NCBI GenBank assembly: GCA_018675975.1
Contig: JABGXB010000003.1
Coordinates: forward strand, 267,821 to 331,820
DNA: 64,000 bases
Source of the DNA: Candidatus Woesearchaeota archaeon
GTDB taxonomy: Archaea; Nanobdellota; Nanobdellia; Woesearchaeales; JABGXB01
Direction: 5' to 3'
Under the pieces are notes generated by a model, which was not told the DNA's origin, made no database searches, and saw only the letters and a program-made list of their open reading frames with translations. Shown here one piece after another: positions 28,002-38,146 of the stretch. Position numbers and translations under genes: made by a program. Position 1 is the stretch's first letter. Each line of letters opens with the position of its first letter.

Positions 28002-28658
28002 ATGGTATATACTAGTTTAGGTCCTGCTTGGTTTGAAACATATGGAATTATATTTGAAATCATATTTATTCTAATTACAGGTTTAATTGCTTTAAGATCA
28101 TATCGAGCATATAAATTAATTAAAAAGAAAGAATTATTAACATTTACATTATCATTTGGACTTTTTTGTTTAGCATTTTTTACACAATTTATAATTAATT
28201 TATTAATTGTATTAAATAAACAATCAAAAGATCATTTACTTTCTCCATTAAATACTTTAAATACAGTAATTACATCGAATTTTCAATTAAGTAGCATGTG
28301 TTATTTTTTCTTTTCATTATTTACAATATGTGGTTTATTATTATTCATATATTTAACATTTGAAATTAGAAATAGAAGATTATTATTACTATTATTTGTA
28401 TTAGTAGTATTAGCACAAATAACTGCAATAAATAAAATTGTTTTATTTTATGTATTCTCCACAATTTTTTATGGATTTATAGTTGAATTTTATTATAGAA
28501 AAAAAATAAAAGTTGCATTTTTAGGTTTTGTATTTTTATTAATTAGCAATATATCATTTTTATTTATACCACTTAGTGAATTTGCATTTGTAATTGGAAA
28601 TTTTTTAACACTAGTTGGTTATTTAATTCTAGCAAAATTATTGAAAAAAAATAATTAA
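28002..28658 (+). CDS. hypothetical polytopic membrane protein
   Basis: About six hydrophobic helices, no motif. Confidence 0.4.
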   Translation: MVYTSLGPAWFETYGIIFEIIFILITGLIALRSYRAYKLIKKKELLTFTLSFGLFCLAFFTQFIINLLIVLNKQSKDHLLSPLNTLNTVITSNFQLSSMCYFFFSLFTICGLLLFIYLTFEIRNRRLLLLLFVLVVLAQITAINKIVLFYVFSTIFYGFIVEFYYRKKIKVAFLGFVFLLISNISFLFIPLSEFAFVIGNFLTLVGYLILAKLLKKNN

Positions 28659-28736
28659 TAATTATAGTATATGATTTTATCTATATAATTTATTACATAA
28701 AATAACTTTATATAATAATTAACCAAAATAAATAGT

Positions 28737-29189
28737 ATGGATGAAAATATAATTAAACAAAGAATAATTCAACATACCTTATCACACGCTGATGAATATA
28801 GAGGTTATTTAACTCATTCAGGATTATTTCATTTAACAAATAATTTAGAATTAATTGGAAAATATCCTAGTGGAAGATTATTTCAAGGATTTTTAGTTGA
28901 TATTCTTGCTAATGAAATTAAACCTATATCTAATACAAACAAATCTCCTTTTTTGTCTTATCAAGTTAAAAAATTAAAACCAAATAATTTTGAATCTTTA
29001 ATTCTATCAGGAAAATATACTTTATCATATGACCCTGAAAAAAAAATGGTTTATTTAAAATCTAGAGAAATTGAAAAAGTAGAAAATATGAATGCATTAA
29101 GAAATGAAGAATTTTATAGATTATCTGCAGGAATGATGGGTTATAAAAATGACATTAATCCAATGATTAAAATATTATTTGAAGAATAA
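28737..29189 (+). CDS. hypothetical protein
   Basis: 150 aa, no motif. Confidence 0.35.
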   Translation: MDENIIKQRIIQHTLSHADEYRGYLTHSGLFHLTNNLELIGKYPSGRLFQGFLVDILANEIKPISNTNKSPFLSYQVKKLKPNNFESLILSGKYTLSYDPEKKMVYLKSREIEKVENMNALRNEEFYRLSAGMMGYKNDINPMIKILFEE

Positions 29190-29273: not shown

Positions 29274-31034
29274 ATGAATTATCAAATGAAGAATTTTTCC
29301 ACTGAGCAAACTGAATTATTAAGATCATTTCTTTTTACAGCTCCACATAGTAATGTAAGTTTAATTTATCCACAACAATTAGTTGCAGGTGAAGAACTAG
29401 CCCCATTAATTTCAGCATATTCAAGAAGCAATCAACCACTTCAAGAAAGAGTATTAGAATTTGTTGATAAACAAAAAAATACAGAAGCTAAAGCACTATT
29501 ACCACATTTACCAGAATTAATGAAAACATTTAGAAATGAAGATGGTTCATTAAAAATTAGTAAAAAAACAAGAAACTTTTCTAAAAAATGGGTTCTTGCG
29601 CACGGTCACAGTTCAATAAAAGAAATGAATTCTATTTTTGGATGTGTTGAAGGAATTTCAGACATTTGTGGAAAATTAATTACTGGACATCCTTTAGCCC
29701 ACCCTCAAGTTAAGTCATCAAGATATATTTCTTTTGAAGATACATTAGATATGGCATTAGTAGATCCAGACATTCAAAACTTATCTTGTTCAAATGAAAT
29801 TATAGAACATTTAAAAGAATTAAATACAGAATATCTTAATGCAACTAAATATTTAGCAAATGCAGTATTTAAATCTGAAGAAACTGATCAAATAAGAGAA
29901 TTTTTAACTCGAGACTCAGTATTAGATATGCATGGTGAAAAATTATTTAATCGTGCTAAAAAAAAAGATCCAGAATTAGTAAAAACTGACACATTAATAG
30001 AAGAATTAAAATCACAGGCTTATGAAAATATAAATAGTGATGAGTATGTAATGGGACAACTTGAAAAATTTGTTCTTGATAGAAGTAGAGTATATTTACC
30101 TGGTTCAACTAGAACAAGTTTAGGTTTTATGATTGATGGTAGAACATGTGAAGAAATCATTACAACATTATTAACTAGTCCTTTAATAGAAGCCCAAAGT
30201 TTTGGTAATCAAATTTGGACTGAAACAAAAAAAATCTCACCTGTTTTATTAGGAGATCAATCCCATATTAAAAAAGATGAATGGAAATATGAGTTAGATA
30301 CGGACTTTAGAAAAGAATTAGCTACACGATTAGATTATATTGTCATGCACTCTGAACAAAAATTTGGAAGAGTTTATTCACCAAGCTTTGTACATTCAAG
30401 AGGAGAAGATACAAGATCTGCAGTTATGGCTGCATATAAATATAGTGATTTTTCTTTTGATGATTTAATAGAACAATTAAAAGAAAAAGATGTTAAATGG
30501 ATTTTAGATAGAACTCACGAACATAGAAATAAATTTGATCAATTACATGAAAGTGGTGGTCATGGTGGTATGCTTACTGAAATGACTATGCCATATCATG
30601 GTTATAGAGATATGTTTAGACATAGAAAAGGAGCAAGATCTAATCAATTATATACAACAGTTCACGGTTTTGAAAATGTTGAAATTTTTAATCATTTTGA
30701 TATAAATTCAAGATATGAATTATTAATGAATAAAAATAATGAATTATTTAGAAAAGCAGCAAAAGAAAATCCCCATGCTGCACAAAAAGTTGTTGCCTTT
30801 GGTCAATTATGTAGAGCAGCACACAGTTGGTCATTAGAACAAATTGGATATATTGCAAGAATAAGAGCGAATATTGAAACCGGAAATATTAGTTATGTAA
30901 AAACTGTTCATCAAATTGTAGATGGTGTAAAAAGATTATCACCACAATTAGCATCAAAAATAAATTATAATCAAGAAATGTTTCCAGAACATATTTGGAA
31001 AGAAGGTTATGATTTATTTAGAAGTAAAAAATAA
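29274..31034 (+). CDS. tandem ThyX-like (flavin-dependent thymidylate synthase family) protein, N-terminal copy degenerate
   Basis: Residues ~115-160, HGHSSIKEMNSIFGCVEGISDICGKLITGHPLAHPQVKSSRY, align to the ThyX core HGHETPFEH...WFRHRIASYNELSGRY with RHR replaced by TGH. A C-terminal segment, GHGGMLTEMTMPYHGYRDMFRHRKGARSNQLY, retains RHR. Confidence 0.45.
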   Translation: MNYQMKNFSTEQTELLRSFLFTAPHSNVSLIYPQQLVAGEELAPLISAYSRSNQPLQERVLEFVDKQKNTEAKALLPHLPELMKTFRNEDGSLKISKKTRNFSKKWVLAHGHSSIKEMNSIFGCVEGISDICGKLITGHPLAHPQVKSSRYISFEDTLDMALVDPDIQNLSCSNEIIEHLKELNTEYLNATKYLANAVFKSEETDQIREFLTRDSVLDMHGEKLFNRAKKKDPELVKTDTLIEELKSQAYENINSDEYVMGQLEKFVLDRSRVYLPGSTRTSLGFMIDGRTCEEIITTLLTSPLIEAQSFGNQIWTETKKISPVLLGDQSHIKKDEWKYELDTDFRKELATRLDYIVMHSEQKFGRVYSPSFVHSRGEDTRSAVMAAYKYSDFSFDDLIEQLKEKDVKWILDRTHEHRNKFDQLHESGGHGGMLTEMTMPYHGYRDMFRHRKGARSNQLYTTVHGFENVEIFNHFDINSRYELLMNKNNELFRKAAKENPHAAQKVVAFGQLCRAAHSWSLEQIGYIARIRANIETGNISYVKTVHQIVDGVKRLSPQLASKINYNQEMFPEHIWKEGYDLFRSKK

Positions 31035-31066: not shown

Positions 31067-31696
31067 ATGAATTTAAGTATATATAGTGAGATTCCAATGC
31101 ATCAAGTTATTGAAGAAGTTAGAAAATCCCCTATGTTAAAATCTGATACTCAATTTCCTTACAAAAATGCAAATATTAGTTTACGTAATGTCGGTATGGG
31201 TGAAATTAATCCAACAAGTTTATATGCATTAAAAGCTAATTTGGATTTTCAAAAAAACTTAAGAGAATATATATTAAATAGATTTGGTTTTGATACATTA
31301 AGATTAAGTTCTGGTCTTATATTAGAAAATAAAGATGGGGAGCGTCAAACATTAATACCTCCTATAGTTGAAGTATCAGAAAGAGAAGTTAAGTTCATTC
31401 CACAAAAAGATGAATTATCATATGAAAATTCATATAAAATAAAAATACCGTGTTTACTTGATGGTATTCATCGCGCACTATGTGCAAAAGAATTAGGTAT
31501 AGATTTAAATGTAATTTTTATTTATGATTCAGATACCAATTATCCTGTTTATGCACATCCAAATGAATGGGATTTAGTTAAAATTTGTGATAGTATACCA
31601 AAAGAAAAAAGTCAAAAAAAAATGTATTTAAGAGATGATCATTCTAGTTTGTATAAATCATTTGCACACTTAGGTTCAAGTGGTCTTAGAAAATGA
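31067..31696 (+). CDS. hypothetical protein, ParB/Srx-like domain
   Basis: Segment IPCLLDGIHRALCAKELGID fits the ParB/sulfiredoxin DGxHRxxAxxxLG signature. Otherwise no matches. Confidence 0.3.
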   Translation: MNLSIYSEIPMHQVIEEVRKSPMLKSDTQFPYKNANISLRNVGMGEINPTSLYALKANLDFQKNLREYILNRFGFDTLRLSSGLILENKDGERQTLIPPIVEVSEREVKFIPQKDELSYENSYKIKIPCLLDGIHRALCAKELGIDLNVIFIYDSDTNYPVYAHPNEWDLVKICDSIPKEKSQKKMYLRDDHSSLYKSFAHLGSSGLRK

Positions 31697-32850
31697 GTAA
31701 TTTAGTTTTAGTTGAAGGAATAAGTGGAGCTGGTAAAAGTACAGCAATTAATTTTATTCAATCTTATCTTTCAACATTCAATATTCAAAGTCACACATTT
31801 AATGAACCCGGTCATATGCGAGATGAAATTAAAAAATATCATAATAGAGAAGACAGAGATCTTCAATTAGAATTTGATCATTATGTTTTATCCAGAAAAG
31901 TTGATTTACATCATAAAGTAATGCCAACTATAAAAAATCACCCAAAGGATACTATCCTCATTGATCGAAGTTGGATTTCTACAATGGTTTATCAACAAAC
32001 AGAACAATGTCCAATGATAAATATTCGTGATTATCATTCCTTTTATCCCAAACACAATTTAGCATTACTCTTAATTTGTGATCCTGAAACTGCATATCAA
32101 AGAATTTTAAAAAGAAAAGAAACTCAAGGAATAGAATTAAGTACATCTGAAAATCCAAAAAGAATTGCTGAACTTAGAAAAAGTTATATTGAAGCATTTG
32201 ATTTAGTAGATTATTCTGTAATTATTAATACTGATGGAAGTGAAAATGCAGTTAATTGTATTTTAAAATCTTATATGAATAAATTATTAGGAATTAAAGA
32301 AAAAAAAATTGTTTTTTTAGATAAAGATGGTACTTTAGTTGACAATTCTAAATATCCAGAAGTAATTCCAACGGATGAAATTCTTTTTGCAGATACATTA
32401 GAAGGATTATATAAATTAAAAAGTGCAGGATATGAATTTCATATGATTTCTTCTCAACCATGGGTTGCTAAAGGTCAATTAAGTTTAGATCAAACAAATG
32501 AAATTTTTGAAAGTGTTATAGAACAATATAAAAAATATGGAATTGAATTTACTGGATATGGTTTTTGTGAACATCATAGAAGTGATAATTGTCCAGATAA
32601 AAAACCAAATACAGGTTTATTAGAACAAATAGCAACTCAACAAAATATTGATATTTCTCAAAGCTTTTTTATAGGAGATATGGAATCGGATATTGAATGC
32701 GGTTATAATTTTGGATTACAAACTGGATTAGTAACTAAATATTCAAATGCAAAAACAATAGATAATTTATCTCAACAAAGATTTAAAAGAACTCCAAATT
32801 ATACTGCAATTAATTTGAATGAAATTGCAAATCAAATAATTGAAAATTAA
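31693..32850 (+). CDS. tmk: thymidylate kinase fused to HAD-IIIA phosphatase domain
   Basis: Tmk motifs: P-loop VLVEGISGAGKST, NEPGH, and the DRY-like IDRSWISTMVYQ. HAD motifs: FLDKDGTLV, ISSQ, DKKPNTGLL, IGDMESD. Confidence 0.6.
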   Translation: MSNLVLVEGISGAGKSTAINFIQSYLSTFNIQSHTFNEPGHMRDEIKKYHNREDRDLQLEFDHYVLSRKVDLHHKVMPTIKNHPKDTILIDRSWISTMVYQQTEQCPMINIRDYHSFYPKHNLALLLICDPETAYQRILKRKETQGIELSTSENPKRIAELRKSYIEAFDLVDYSVIINTDGSENAVNCILKSYMNKLLGIKEKKIVFLDKDGTLVDNSKYPEVIPTDEILFADTLEGLYKLKSAGYEFHMISSQPWVAKGQLSLDQTNEIFESVIEQYKKYGIEFTGYGFCEHHRSDNCPDKKPNTGLLEQIATQQNIDISQSFFIGDMESDIECGYNFGLQTGLVTKYSNAKTIDNLSQQRFKRTPNYTAINLNEIANQIIEN

Positions 32851-33154: not shown

Positions 33155-33604
33155 ATGAAATGCCCACATTGTAATTCAGATGATTTGAAAGTAAATGAAA
33201 CAAGAGAAACAGAATCAAATAGTTTTAGAAGAAGAAGAGAATGCAATAATTGTGAAGAAAGATTTACTACATATGAAAAAATTCAAGAATTATTAATTAG
33301 TGTAAAAAAAGAAAGTGGAAAATTAGAAAATTATACTAAAGAAAAATTAGAAAAAAGTTTTTTGATTGCTTGTAATAAAAGACCAATAACAAGAATTCAA
33401 ATATTAAAAATTATTGAAAACATTGAAAATAAAATAAGAAATAATTTTAAAAATGAAATTTCATCTAAGACATTAGGTGAATATGTAATGGAAGAATTAA
33501 AAATTTTAGATCCAATATCATATATTAGATATGCTTCAGTATACAAAGATTTTGATGATTTAGATAAATTTAATCAAGAATTAATATTATTAAAGGTGAA
33601 TTGA
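33155..33604 (+). CDS. nrdR: transcriptional repressor NrdR
   Basis: Zinc ribbon CPHCNSDD...CNNCEERFTTYE followed by an ATP-cone. Its stop abuts the nrdJ start. Confidence 0.8.
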   Translation: MKCPHCNSDDLKVNETRETESNSFRRRRECNNCEERFTTYEKIQELLISVKKESGKLENYTKEKLEKSFLIACNKRPITRIQILKIIENIENKIRNNFKNEISSKTLGEYVMEELKILDPISYIRYASVYKDFDDLDKFNQELILLKVN

Positions 33605-36600
33605 ATGGAACAAAGTATTGAAACAAAACGAACTGGTATAAAAGTTAAAAAAGTTTTTTGTAGTGATAATATAAGCCCATTTGAAACTGTTGAATTTGAA
33701 AACAGATCAAGTGTGATAAAAAATAGAGATGGTTCTATATTATTTGAAATAAATAATATTCATGCTCCAAAAAAATGGTCGCAAGTTGCCGTAGATATAA
33801 TGGCACAAAAATATTTTAGAAAAAGTGGAGTTCCACAATATGATGAAAATCAAAATGAAATTAAAGATGAATTTTCAAATATAATTACAGGTTCAGAAAC
33901 AGATATTACTCAACCAATAAAAAGATTAACTGGATGTTGGAGACATTGGGGAGAAAAATATAATTATTTTGATACGCAACAAGATGCAATTAATTTTGAA
34001 CAAGAAATACAATATATGTTATTACATCAAATCGCTGCACCAAATAGTCCACAATGGTTTAATACGGGACTTAAATGGGCATATAATATTTCTGGAAGTG
34101 CACAAGGACATTATTATGCTGAACATGAAACAGGTGAAATTAAATTATCTGAGGATGCATATTCAAGACCTCAACCGCATGCATGTGCGGATTATTATAC
34201 ACAAGTGTATACTGATAAGGGTACAATGTATATTGGAGATATAGTTGAAAATAATTTAACTAATATAAAAGTATTTGATGGAGAAAAATATGTAAAAGTT
34301 CTTGCAATCAAAAACAATGGAAAAAAAGAAGTGTTTAAAATTCAATTAAAAAATGGAAATTATATTAAATTAACTCAAGATCATTTAGTGCTATCATCAC
34401 AAAAAAGAAAAAAAAATGGTGGAAATTATAACTGGAATTATGTAAAAGATGTAAAATTAGGTCACAAATTACAACAACCATTAATTCTAGATATTAAAGA
34501 AAAAAATGTATTTAGTGATGATTTAGCAAAAGCAAGATTAGCCGGTTGGATAGTTGGAGACGGATCAGTTGGAATTTATGAAAATGTAATGAGATTGGAA
34601 ATTATTTCTATTAAAGAAGAAGAATTTGAATCAATAATAAATGATATTCAAGAAGTATTTGGACAAGAAGTTAATTTTTGGATTAGTAAATTTAAAACAA
34701 AAAACGAAAATTTAGATGGTAAAAGAATTCATTTAGCAGGTAAAAAAATACATAAATTAATTGAAGACTATGATTTACTAAAATCTTCATTTAATGCAGA
34801 AGTACCTCAAAAAATAATTAATGGGTCACCACAAGAAAAAAGAGAATTTTTAAAAGCCTTATTTCAAGCAGATGGTTGTGTCAGAATTAGAAAAGATGAA
34901 AATAGAAATTCAGGAGATGTGTGTTTAACTACAATTTCAGAAAATCTTTCATTTGGAGTTTTACAATTATTAAATTCATTAGGTATTTATTGTAGAATTA
35001 ATAAATATAGTGATAAAAGAGAAAATCGAAAAGATGTTAATCAAGTTATAGTATCTTATGGTAGTGCAAGAGAACAATTTCAAGAACAAATTTCTTTTAT
35101 ATGTTCTCAAAAAACCGAAAAATTAGAATTATTAAATAAAATTATAACAAAATCAAAAACACTTCCATTAATAAGAGAAGAAACAATTATTTCAATTGAA
35201 TCTGAAGGCATTAAAGATGTTTATGATATTCAAACAGAATCTTCAAAATTTCTTGGAAATGGAATTGTAATACATAATTGTTTTATTCAATCAGTTAAAG
35301 ATGATTTAGTTAATCAAGGTGGAATATTTGACCTTTGTACAAGAGAGGCAAGAATATTTAAATATGGTTCTGGAACTGGTTCAAATTTTTCACAATTAAG
35401 AGGTCAGTCTGAAAAATTATCAGGTGGTGGAAGATCTTCAGGTATGATGTCATTTTTAAAAATATTTGATGTGGCAGCTGGAGCAATTAAATCAGGTGGT
35501 ACAACAAGACGTGCAGCAAAAATGGTTTGTCTTGATTTGGATCATCCAGAAATTATTGAATTTATTGATTGGAAAGCAAATGAAGAAAAAAAAGTTGCTA
35601 ATTTAATTACTGGTTCAAAAAATTCAAAATATCATTTACAAAAAATATTAAAAGAAGCAAGTTCAAATTCAAATATAGAAAAAAATCCAAAATTAAAATC
35701 AGCAATTAAAGAAGCTATTGAACAAAATATTTCTTTAAATTATATTGATAGAGTTTTAAAACTTGCAAATCAAGGAATAACTGAATTTGAAACTCCCGAG
35801 TTTGATAATCATTTTGAAGGTGAAGCATATTCTACAGTTAGTGGACAAAATTCAAATAATTCAATAAGAATACCAAATTCATTTTATGAAGCTGTTCATA
35901 AAGACTTAGATTGGAATTTAAAAAATAGAACTGATGGAAAAATTTCAAAAACTGTAAGAGCAAAATGGCTTTATGATAAAATTGGACAAGCTGCTTGGGC
36001 TTGTGCAGATCCTGGTGTTCAATTTGATACGACAATTAATGAATGGCATACATGTCCAAAAGATGGAAGAATTAATGCAAGTAATCCTTGTTCTGAATAT
36101 ATGTTTTTAGATGATACTGCATGTAATTTAGCTAGTATTAATTTAATTCATTTTATTAATGATAGTGGACATTTTAATGAAGAAAAATTTGCTCATGCAT
36201 GTGAACTTATGACAATTGTTTTGGAAATTTCAGTTACTATGGCTCAATTTCCAAGTGATGAAATTGCAAAAAGAAGTTGGGAATATAGAACATTAGGTTT
36301 AGGTTTTGCAAATTTAGGGACATTACTCATGGTTAAAGGAATTTCTTATGATAGTGATGAAGCTAGAAGTATAGCTGGAGGAATTAGTGCCATAATGTGT
36401 GGAACTGCTTATGAAACATCTGCTAAACTCGCAAAACATCTAGGACCTTTTAACAGATATGAACATAATAAAGATGACATGTTAAGAGTTATTAGAAATC
36501 ATAGACGTGCTGCATATAATGTTTCAAATGAAGAGTATGAAAAATTAGAAATTACTCCAGTTGGCATTGATGAAAATTTATGTCCAAATAATATTTTACA

Positions 36601-38146
36601 AAAAGCTAGAAATTCATGGGATAATGCACTTGAACTTGGACAAGAATATGGATTTAGAAATGCACAAGTAACTGTTATTGCACCAACCGGAACTATTGGA
36701 CTTTTAATGGATTGTGATACTACAGGAGTTGAGCCAGACTTTGCAATTGTTAAATATAAAAAACTTGCAGGCGGTGGTTATTTTAAAATTGTAAATCATT
36801 CAGTTATTAAAGCATTGAGAACTTTAGGTTATGAAAAAGATCAAATTATTGATATTAAAAAATATTGTATAGGTCATCAAACATTAGTGGGTTGTCCAAC
36901 CATAAATCATAAAATTTTAAAAGATAAAGGATTTGATGAAGAAAAATTAGAACTTATTGAAAAACAATTAGAAACTGCATTTGATTTGAGTTTTGTTATG
37001 AATAAAAATATTTTAAGTGAAGAATTTTTAAAAAAATTAGGATTTAGTGATGAACAATTAAATTCTGAAATGTTTGATTTACTAGAAGAATTAAAATTTA
37101 CAAAAGAACAAGTTGATATTGCAAATGAATATGTTTTTGGAACAATGACAGTTGAAGATGCTCCATACTTATTAGAAGAACATTATTCAGTTTTTGATTG
37201 TGCAAATAAATGTGGAAAAAAAGGTAATAGATATATTGACACTTATGGACATATTAATATGATGGCAGCAGTTCAACCTTTTATTTCTGGTGCAATTAGT
37301 AAAACAATTAATATGGATTCAGAAGTTAGTGTTAAAGATATTTTAGATGCTTATGAAGCTAGTTGGAAATTAATGCTTAAAGCAAATGCATTATATAGAG
37401 ATGGATGTAAATTAAGTCAACCATTAAATACTGCTGTTTTTGAAAGTGAATACAATTTAAATTTATCTGAAGAAGATATTGATGAAACAGTTGATTCAGC
37501 AGCAATTCAACAACAAATTCAAACAATGAAAGCAAATCAGTTGCCGAGAAAAAGAGGTGGTTTTGTTCAAGAAGCAACTGTTGCAGGTCACAAAATATAT
37601 TTAAGAACTGGTGAATATAATGACGGAAAATTAGGTGAAATTTTTATTGACATGTATAAGGAAGGTGCTGCCTTTAAAGCACTAATAAATTGTTTTGCAG
37701 TTGCAATAAGTAAATCTCTACAATTTGGTGTTCCTTTAGAAGAATTTGTTGAACAGTTTACATTTACTAGATTTGAACCGGCAGGTTTAGTAACTGGACA
37801 TGAATATATTAAAAATTCTACGTCAATATTAGATTATGTATTTCGTGTTCTAGGCTATGAATATTTAGGTAGAGATGATTTAATTCATGTAAAACCTAAA
37901 AGAAAACCACTAGACATTATAGAACATGAAGATGATCCAAGAGATAAACATAAAACACTAGATAGTTTTTCTAATAGAAAAAATGTAGAAGAGACTAGAA
38001 ACGAAATGCTTTTTAAAAAAATTAATACTGCCAAATCAAGAGGATATACTGGAGAAGCATGTGGTTCTTGTGGTAGTATGAGAGTAAAAAGAAATGGAAG
38101 TTGTACACTTTGTGAAGATTGTGGTTCTACTAGTGGTTGCAGTTAG
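33605..38146 (+). CDS. nrdJ: ribonucleotide reductase, class II-like large monomeric type, with one intein
   Basis: N-terminal [17 protein letters not shown]; thiyl-radical loop NASNPCSEY; C-terminal CxxC...CxxC zinc ribbon. No glycyl-radical motif. Extein is 1148 aa. Confidence 0.8.
34184..35278 (+). mobile_element. intein with LAGLIDADG homing-endonuclease domain inside nrdJ
   Basis: Begins at Cys (PQPHA|CADYY) and ends VIHN|CFIQ (His-Asn, then the +1 Cys). Two LAGLIDADG blocks: [11 protein letters not shown] and [11 protein letters not shown]. 365 aa. Confidence 0.8.

Follow-up and report, generated by a model that had tools for sequence, protein, structure and literature searches.

We describe here a protein of 586 amino acids (aa) that is encoded in a 64,000-nucleotide stretch of a Candidatus Woesearchaeota genome (contig JABGXB010000003.1, positions 267,821 to 331,820; below, the window) and that is probably a functional flavin-dependent thymidylate synthase, ThyX, made of two fused ThyX domains. 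The ligand-binding residues are partitioned between the two domains and the protein would assemble as a pseudo-D2 dimer, a reading to which we give a probability of about 75%. We infer that the enzyme converts deoxyuridine monophosphate (dUMP) to thymidylate (dTMP) in a reaction that depends on flavin adenine dinucleotide (FAD). The positions of the gene, its motifs and its neighbors are collected in Table 1.

ThyX Fold in Both Halves

The N-terminal half of the protein matches the Pfam family Thy1 (PF02511) over residues 96–324 with 40 bits, above the cut-off of 24.8 (E 4.6e-10). The C-terminal half taken alone gives no Pfam match at E ≤ 10; the C-halves of distant family members do exceed the Thy1 gathering score, with 25.8–33.4 bits. 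An AlphaFold model of the full-length protein has a mean predicted local distance difference test score (pLDDT) of 92.9 and a predicted template modeling score (pTM) of 0.91. When this model was compared with the PDB by Foldseek, the best 50 matches listed were all members of the ThyX family, but their E-values were weak (0.012 or higher) and the C-half was therefore modeled and searched separately. This second model (pLDDT 91.7) found 96 PDB matches at E ≤ 1e-3, the best 50 of which are all ThyX or ThyX-like.

Profile–profile alignment by hhalign leads to the same fold. The profiles were built from 192 family representatives, and the reference sequence, Thermotoga maritima ThyX (TM0449), was checked and is identical to that of PDB 1kq4/1o26. 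The N-half profile aligns to TM0449 with a probability of 96.1% (E 1.8e-9; residues 59–335 on residues 1–212), the C-half profile with 93.5% (E 3.6e-8), and the two half profiles align to each other with 93.4% (E 2.4e-7). A direct Smith–Waterman alignment of the halves was not significant, scoring 59 against 32.8 ± 6.1 for shuffled sequences (maximum 69), and narrow profiles made of 39 close DPANN homologs showed no similarity between them (probability 0.7%). As judged from these alignments, the duplication of the ThyX domain is real but ancient, since it is seen with the 192-sequence alignment only and escapes both the pairwise and the 39-sequence comparison. The original prediction, which was made from the DNA sequence alone, held that both halves align to the ThyX fold, and on this Pfam, profile–profile alignment and AlphaFold with Foldseek agree. 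Of the checks that it proposed, the profile alignment of each half to ThyX succeeded. Its description of the protein as a covalently fused pseudo-dimer is likewise borne out, as a two-domain ThyX, by the fold evidence on both halves.

Partition of the Active Site Motifs

The whole protein contains one RHR, at residues 449–451, and one S-x-R-Y, at residues 148–151. The open reading frame (ORF) and the two peptides that were quoted in the original prediction exist as described; these are HGHSSIKEMNSIFGCVEGISDICGKLITGHPLAHPQVKSSRY (residues 110–151, nucleotides 29601–29726) and GHGGMLTEMTMPYHGYRDMFRHRKGARSNQLY (residues 429–460, nucleotides 30558–30653). In what follows, window residues are given in one-letter code and T. 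maritima residues in three-letter code, and conservation was counted in the alignment columns of the 192 representatives.

The N-half keeps the HGH motif and the dUMP loop. H112 is found in 170 of 192 representatives and S114, which stands for Thr55, in 189, whilst the E117 column holds Glu in 147 and Asp in 42. In the dUMP loop S148 and R150 are invariant (192/192) and Y151 is nearly so (190/192). R272, the equivalent of Arg147, is also invariant, and R290, the equivalent of Arg165, is present in 185/192. This half lacks Arg78, where the column holds Asp or Gly, and Arg174, which is replaced by L299 (L in 116 and M in 64 representatives). The absence of RHR from the first copy, as originally proposed, is therefore correct, yet the proposed TGH register (T137-G138-H139) is not, because counting back from S148 = Ser88 places G138-H139-P140 opposite the RHR. 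In the family, column 138 is D in 95, G in 67 and R in 3 representatives, and column 140 is R in 85 and P in 79. The N-half also carries a helical insertion that is about 65 residues longer than the matching T. maritima segment and that varies or is deleted in some relatives.

The C-half holds the residues that are missing from the N-half. R445 is conserved in 185, D446 in 189, R449 in 191, H450 in 177 and R451 in 190 of the representatives, and R531, the Arg174 equivalent, in 190. At the positions of the dUMP loop the columns are 459 (L/P/D), 460 (L/F) and 461 (T/S), mostly L/L/T. Arg147 is lost (column Q/E) and so is the HGH...S/T motif with His53 and Thr55; a His or Asn (H 130, N 58) stands two positions past the aligned His178. 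The second copy thus has the intact RHR that the original prediction saw in it, which overlooked that HGH and S-x-R-Y are absent there.

A contiguous RHRxxxxxxxSxRY was found in neither domain and the motif is complete only across both. All the FAD and dUMP contacts of the solved structures are present as a composite of the two halves, with H112, S114, E117, S148, R150, Y151, R272 and R290 coming from the N-half and R445, R449-H450-R451 and R531 from the C-half. The same layout and partition were found in all 192 representatives: the N-domain carries S[ST]RY, the C-domain carries R[HQ]R, and the reverse was never seen. The aligned motifs show complementary losses, and a complete ThyX is found in neither half. 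Because the C-half has lost His53/Thr55, Ser88, Arg90, Tyr91 and Arg147, which are kept only by the N-half, the two halves seem to be mutually dependent. The picture of one dead and one intact copy does not hold, as the losses are reciprocal throughout the 192 representatives.

Table 1. Tandem ThyX gene, its domains and motifs, and neighboring genes (window coordinates; residues in three-letter code are those of T. maritima ThyX)
Feature	Position	Strand	Basis
Two-domain (tandem) flavin-dependent thymidylate synthase ThyX, 586 aa	29274..31034	+	ORF list
N-terminal ThyX-like domain, residues 1–335	29274..30278	+	Pfam Thy1; hhalign vs TM0449
H110-G-H112-S-S114-I-K-E117 = His51-Gly-His53-x-Thr55-x-x-Glu58; kept; subunit B FAD/folate-side motif	29601..29624	+	hhalign
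G138-H139-P140, degenerate RHR position in N-half	29685..29693	+	hhalign register
S148-S-R150-Y151 = Ser88-x-Arg90-Tyr91, subunit C dUMP loop; kept	29715..29726	+	hhalign
Helical insertion in N-half, roughly residues 155–265	29736..30068	+	Model helices H154–274; gap opposite TM0449
R272 (= Arg147) to R290 (= Arg165), kept in N-half	30087..30143	+	hhalign
C-terminal ThyX-like domain, residues 336–586, plus stop codon	30279..31034	+	Model, Foldseek, hhalign vs TM0449
R445-D446-M-F-R449-H450-R451 = Arg74-Gln75-x-x-Arg78-His79-Arg80, subunit A FAD/dUMP motif; only in C-half	30606..30626	+	hhalign
N457-Q-L459-Y460-T461, where C-half Glu86/Ser88/Arg90/Tyr91 would sit; lost	30645..30659	+	hhalign
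R531 = Arg174, subunit A uracil-binding arginine; only in C-half	30864..30866	+	hhalign
ParB/Srx-like protein, Pfam ParB CE (PF24392, E 1.8e-14), 209 aa	31067..31696	+	Pfam
dTMP kinase fused to HAD-IIIA (GmhB/histidinol-phosphatase-like) phosphatase	31693..32850	+	Thymidylate_kin E 3.3e-17, HAD; TIGR00041, HAD-IIIA
NrdR (33155–33604), then 1513-aa class II ribonucleotide reductase with intein (33605–38146)	33155..38146	+	Deoxynucleotide context

Proposed Active Site Architecture

In the structures of the Mycobacterium tuberculosis and Helicobacter pylori enzymes each ThyX site is built by three subunits (PMC6514825, section 3.1). Subunit A supplies RHR and Arg199 (= Arg174), subunit B supplies Ser71 (= Thr55) and Arg190 (= Arg165), and subunit C supplies Ser105/Arg107/Tyr108 (= Ser88/Arg90/Tyr91). 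By alignment, the residues kept by the C-half of the window protein are exactly those of subunit A, and the N-half has kept those of subunits B and C. This match between the retained residues and the subunit roles suggests that two fused chains together should mimic the ThyX tetramer.

Most likely, the ThyX domain was duplicated and fused long ago, and the ligand-binding residues were then divided between the two copies. The C-domain would act in the A role, with Arg74, with Arg78-His79-Arg80 holding the FAD phosphates and ribityl, and with Arg174 binding the uracil. The N-domain would act in the B role through His53, Thr55/Ser, Glu58 and Arg165 and in the C role through Ser88, Arg90 and Tyr91, and it would also keep Arg147. 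Two chains should then form a pseudo-D2 particle of four domains in which the true dyad relates like domains. In a D2 tetramer, subunits A, B and C build the first site, and the three dyads generate the remaining three. Subunits A and D, which share no site, would both be C-domains and B and C would both be N-domains, because no other D2 arrangement gives complete sites. Two of the sites in the particle are predicted to be complete, each being formed by one C-domain together with both N-domains, whilst the other two pockets would be degenerate, lacking every key residue and FAD; each 586-aa chain would accordingly carry a single FAD and a single catalytic site. The dTMP made by the tandem ThyX would be phosphorylated by the dTMP kinase fusion encoded downstream. 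A halving of the active sites, as originally proposed, is thus a likely consequence when counted per ThyX domain, but not by way of one dead half, since the losses are reciprocal.

Family and its Distribution

Full-length homologs of the window protein cover 98–99% of the query. A family profile found 2601 representatives at E ≤ 1e-3 and 334 at E ≤ 1e-30 (both as 50%-identity clusters), most of them 460–620 aa long, and a profile made of non-DPANN members found at least 6348 clusters at 90% identity (E ≤ 1e-10). Such a large full-length family speaks for selection. The archaeal members belong to the Woese-, Pace-, Nano-, Aenigm- and Micrarchaeota and the bacterial ones to NC10/Methylomirabilales, Nitrospirae, Dehalococcoidia, Myxococcota, Tectomicrobia, Dependentiae and Patescibacteria; phages have it as well. 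Tandem ThyX appears to be common in lineages with small genomes (DPANN, Patescibacteria). Two glaucophyte transcripts, from Gloeochaete and a second EukProt entry (P0186 and P0353), also encode a tandem ThyX whose nearest relatives are from Patescibacteria, which could be contamination or horizontal transfer.

Nearly all the named members are labeled as "FAD-dependent thymidylate synthase" or "ThyX", and it was already noted that the ThyX of Chloroflexi "contains a domain duplication" that "has not been characterized" (PMC3224940; Biol Direct 2009). This remark of 2009 is all that our literature search on duplicated ThyX found, and no paper describing the complementary residue partition was found in a search that covered little of the early ThyX literature. 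The search for orthologs with the same tandem layout, which was suggested at the outset, thus gave thousands of homologs of about 460–620 aa, and the expectation that this layout would be rare has to be dropped, given the partition in all 192 representatives, the at least 6348 clusters, the many phyla and phages, and a duplication in print since 2009. The window gene is a typical representative of its family, which is widespread, already annotated and poorly characterized.

The window has a very low G+C content of about 18–29%. A database entry from a metagenome-assembled genome of Candidatus Woesearchaeota (P0001) is 100% identical to the window protein and is named "hypothetical protein" at NCBI and "thymidylate synthase" at JGI. 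The identical protein is present on at least 23 contigs from independent samples, which shows that the ORF is no assembly accident.

Gene Neighborhood

The gene that follows the tandem ThyX encodes a ParB/Srx-like protein, below called ParB-CE. Out of 27 DPANN loci, 20 have it immediately 3' of the tandem ThyX and one more has it adjacent on the opposite side. Its invariant motifs are DGxHR, YAHPNxW, KKxY and YRxF. No PDB, NCBIfam or PHROG match to this protein was found, and literature searches on the meaning of "ParB-CE" found nothing. In other lineages the neighboring position is taken by DCD/dUTPase or dCMP deaminase, and by analogy ParB-CE may be an uncharacterized nucleotide-processing enzyme of the dTTP pathway.

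A dTMP kinase (Tmk) follows ParB-CE in 18 of the 27 DPANN loci and the order ThyX–ParB-CE–Tmk is conserved; in the window the start of the dTMP kinase fusion overlaps the ParB-CE stop by 4 nucleotides. Some of the related loci have Tmk alone and others the Tmk-HAD fusion. Other lineages show comparable sets. The order in an Aenigmarchaeota genome is Tmk, tandem ThyX, DCD/dUTPase, Tmk/dNK and dCMP deaminase. Two orders were seen in Patescibacteria, one with DCD, a kinase, Tmk, tandem ThyX and thymidine kinase, and one in which dCMP deaminase, a kinase and dUTPase precede the tandem ThyX at some distance, with Tmk further on. In a jumbo phage dCMP deaminase adjoins the tandem ThyX. In the window itself the cluster goes on with the NrdR repressor and, directly after it, the intein-bearing class II ribonucleotide reductase. 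Taken together, these neighborhoods, with dTMP kinase, dCTP/dCMP deaminase, dUTPase and ribonucleotide reductase, support a likely role in ordinary dTMP synthesis.

Alternative Explanations

One could think that the C-half is a complete, self-sufficient ThyX and that the N-half is a dead scaffold, a case of asymmetric subfunctionalization. RHR is indeed found only in the C-half, and the N-half has neither RHR nor the equivalent of Arg174. We find this quite improbable, as the C-half has no Ser88/Arg90/Tyr91 (L/L/T instead), no Arg147 and no His53/Thr55 motif, and these same residues show little or no variation in the N-half; a scaffold would not hold S148, R150 and R272 invariant across phyla. 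Even less credible, and in our view close to negligible, is the idea that the protein is a pseudo-enzyme without catalytic activity, or that two adjacent thyX genes were joined by an error of assembly or annotation. The degenerate motifs in each half fit it and nothing further does, whilst the identical protein on at least 23 contigs from independent samples, the thousands of full-length homologs of the same length, the pTM of the full-length model and the invariant residues of the composite site all speak against it. A fusion artifact of two thyX genes is effectively ruled out by the family size and the identical contigs.

A further option, which we hold to be unlikely, is a neo-functionalized ThyX-like enzyme that acts on another substrate (such as UMP or dCMP, compare PolB) or serves a pathway other than that of dTMP together with ParB-CE. 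The weak scores against curated ThyX models, the long helical insertion in the N-half, the tight and lineage-specific pairing with the uncharacterized ParB/Srx-like protein and the presence of PolB among the fold matches would all agree with such a change. Yet all the canonical uracil/dUMP and FAD contact residues are kept in one composite site, and the neighbors of the tandem gene in four independent lineages are enzymes that produce dUMP and enzymes that consume dTMP. It also counts against this option that no second thymidylate synthase, ThyX or ThyA, was detected within the 64-kb window, although the search covered only these 64 kb of the genome, a limited scope that also weakens the two-domain reading that we prefer.

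Several more points weigh against this preferred reading. The NCBIfam ThyX equivalog TIGR02170 gives 26.9 bits, far under its cut-off of 87.9, and no ThyX was matched in the PDB by sequence or profile searches, whether the query was the whole protein, the profile of the family or that of the C-half. The equivalences of the His53 region (C-half) and of the His178 region come from a profile alignment of low identity. The subunit that donates Arg147 is not stated in section 3.1 of PMC6514825, and our literature search found no biochemical or structural data for any tandem ThyX member.

Comparison with Known ThyX Proteins

Both halves of the window protein share the fold of canonical ThyX, also named FDTS (TM0449 and the M. 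tuberculosis and H. pylori enzymes; PF02511, EC 2.1.1.148). The same set of residues that contact FAD and dUMP is present, and from it the same chemistry and a three-subunit site would be expected. The canonical enzyme has about 220–250 aa, one domain per chain with a contiguous RHRxxxxxxxSxRY, and four identical sites, whereas the window protein fuses two domains, splits the motif so that SxRY falls in the first and RHR in the second, and is predicted to form two sites for every four domains. PolB, the UMP/dUMP C5-methylase of polyoxin biosynthesis (PDB 4p5a/4p5b), has the ThyX fold and was among the fold matches of the full model. However, it is a single-domain homotetramer with altered substrate loops, and nothing in the context of the window indicates a nucleoside antibiotic pathway.

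The duplicated ThyX of Chloroflexi (PMC3224940) belongs to the same family and has the same two-domain layout; a member from Dehalococcoidia (P0163), with 522 aa and annotated as FAD-dependent thymidylate synthase, matches the family profile with E 5.7e-46. The complementary loss of residues is not described in PMC3224940, and the window protein differs from the Chloroflexi form in its DPANN subclade, its longer N-half insertion and its ParB-CE neighbor. Among phages, the protein of Microcystis phage LMM01 (491 aa; BFVD entry) is a full-length structural match to the window protein (E 2e-13 over 593 columns), and gp50 of Tunturiibacter phage Tunturi_5 (518 aa; L034 1550–3106) matches the family profile with E 3e-139 and adjoins dCMP deaminase. 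Both phage proteins show the same partition as the family, with STRY in the N-half and RHR in the C-half. The phage proteins (LMM01, Tunturi_5 gp50; phrog_36506) differ in that they are shorter, lack the DPANN insertion and stand in a viral context.

Griffin et al. in 2005 reportedly characterized the Chlamydia trachomatis ThyX (CT632) biochemically. CT632 is presumably of double length, about 529 aa, and if it is a member of this family, activity of the tandem type is already proven enzymatically. No chlamydial sequences surfaced in the homology searches, among which a query with a glaucophyte tandem ThyX led to Patescibacteria instead, and the literature search found no paper linking CT632 with ThyX.

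Significance

ThyX is an antibiotic target, and because three subunits build its active site, the part played by each is difficult to dissect in the homotetramer. The tandem family fixes the assignment of domains to roles and is therefore a natural system for asking which residues act from which subunit, and if an enzyme with fewer than four sites can do the work. It is possible, though rather doubtful, that the partition is hitherto undescribed and defines an obligate "hetero-domain" ThyX with FAD in two of four pockets, in which the degenerate pockets or the ParB/Srx-like neighbor have taken a new role (regulation, reductant docking or dUMP supply). The residue–role partition and the conserved ParB-CE neighbor are the only points that are possibly worth more work.

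Other Genes in the Window

Two small ORFs lie 5' of thyX (28002–29189, + strand); one encodes a multi-pass membrane protein of 218 aa and the other a protein of 150 aa. Neither has a family assignment and they are not conserved beside ThyX in related loci. The intein of the ribonucleotide reductase holds a LAGLIDADG endonuclease, as seen in Pfam matches recorded on an identical contig. A few kb past the ThyX cluster there is a 170-aa flavodoxin-like / NAD(P)H-dependent FMN reductase (PF02525, PF03358; 38591–39103, − strand), which could conceivably serve flavin reduction.

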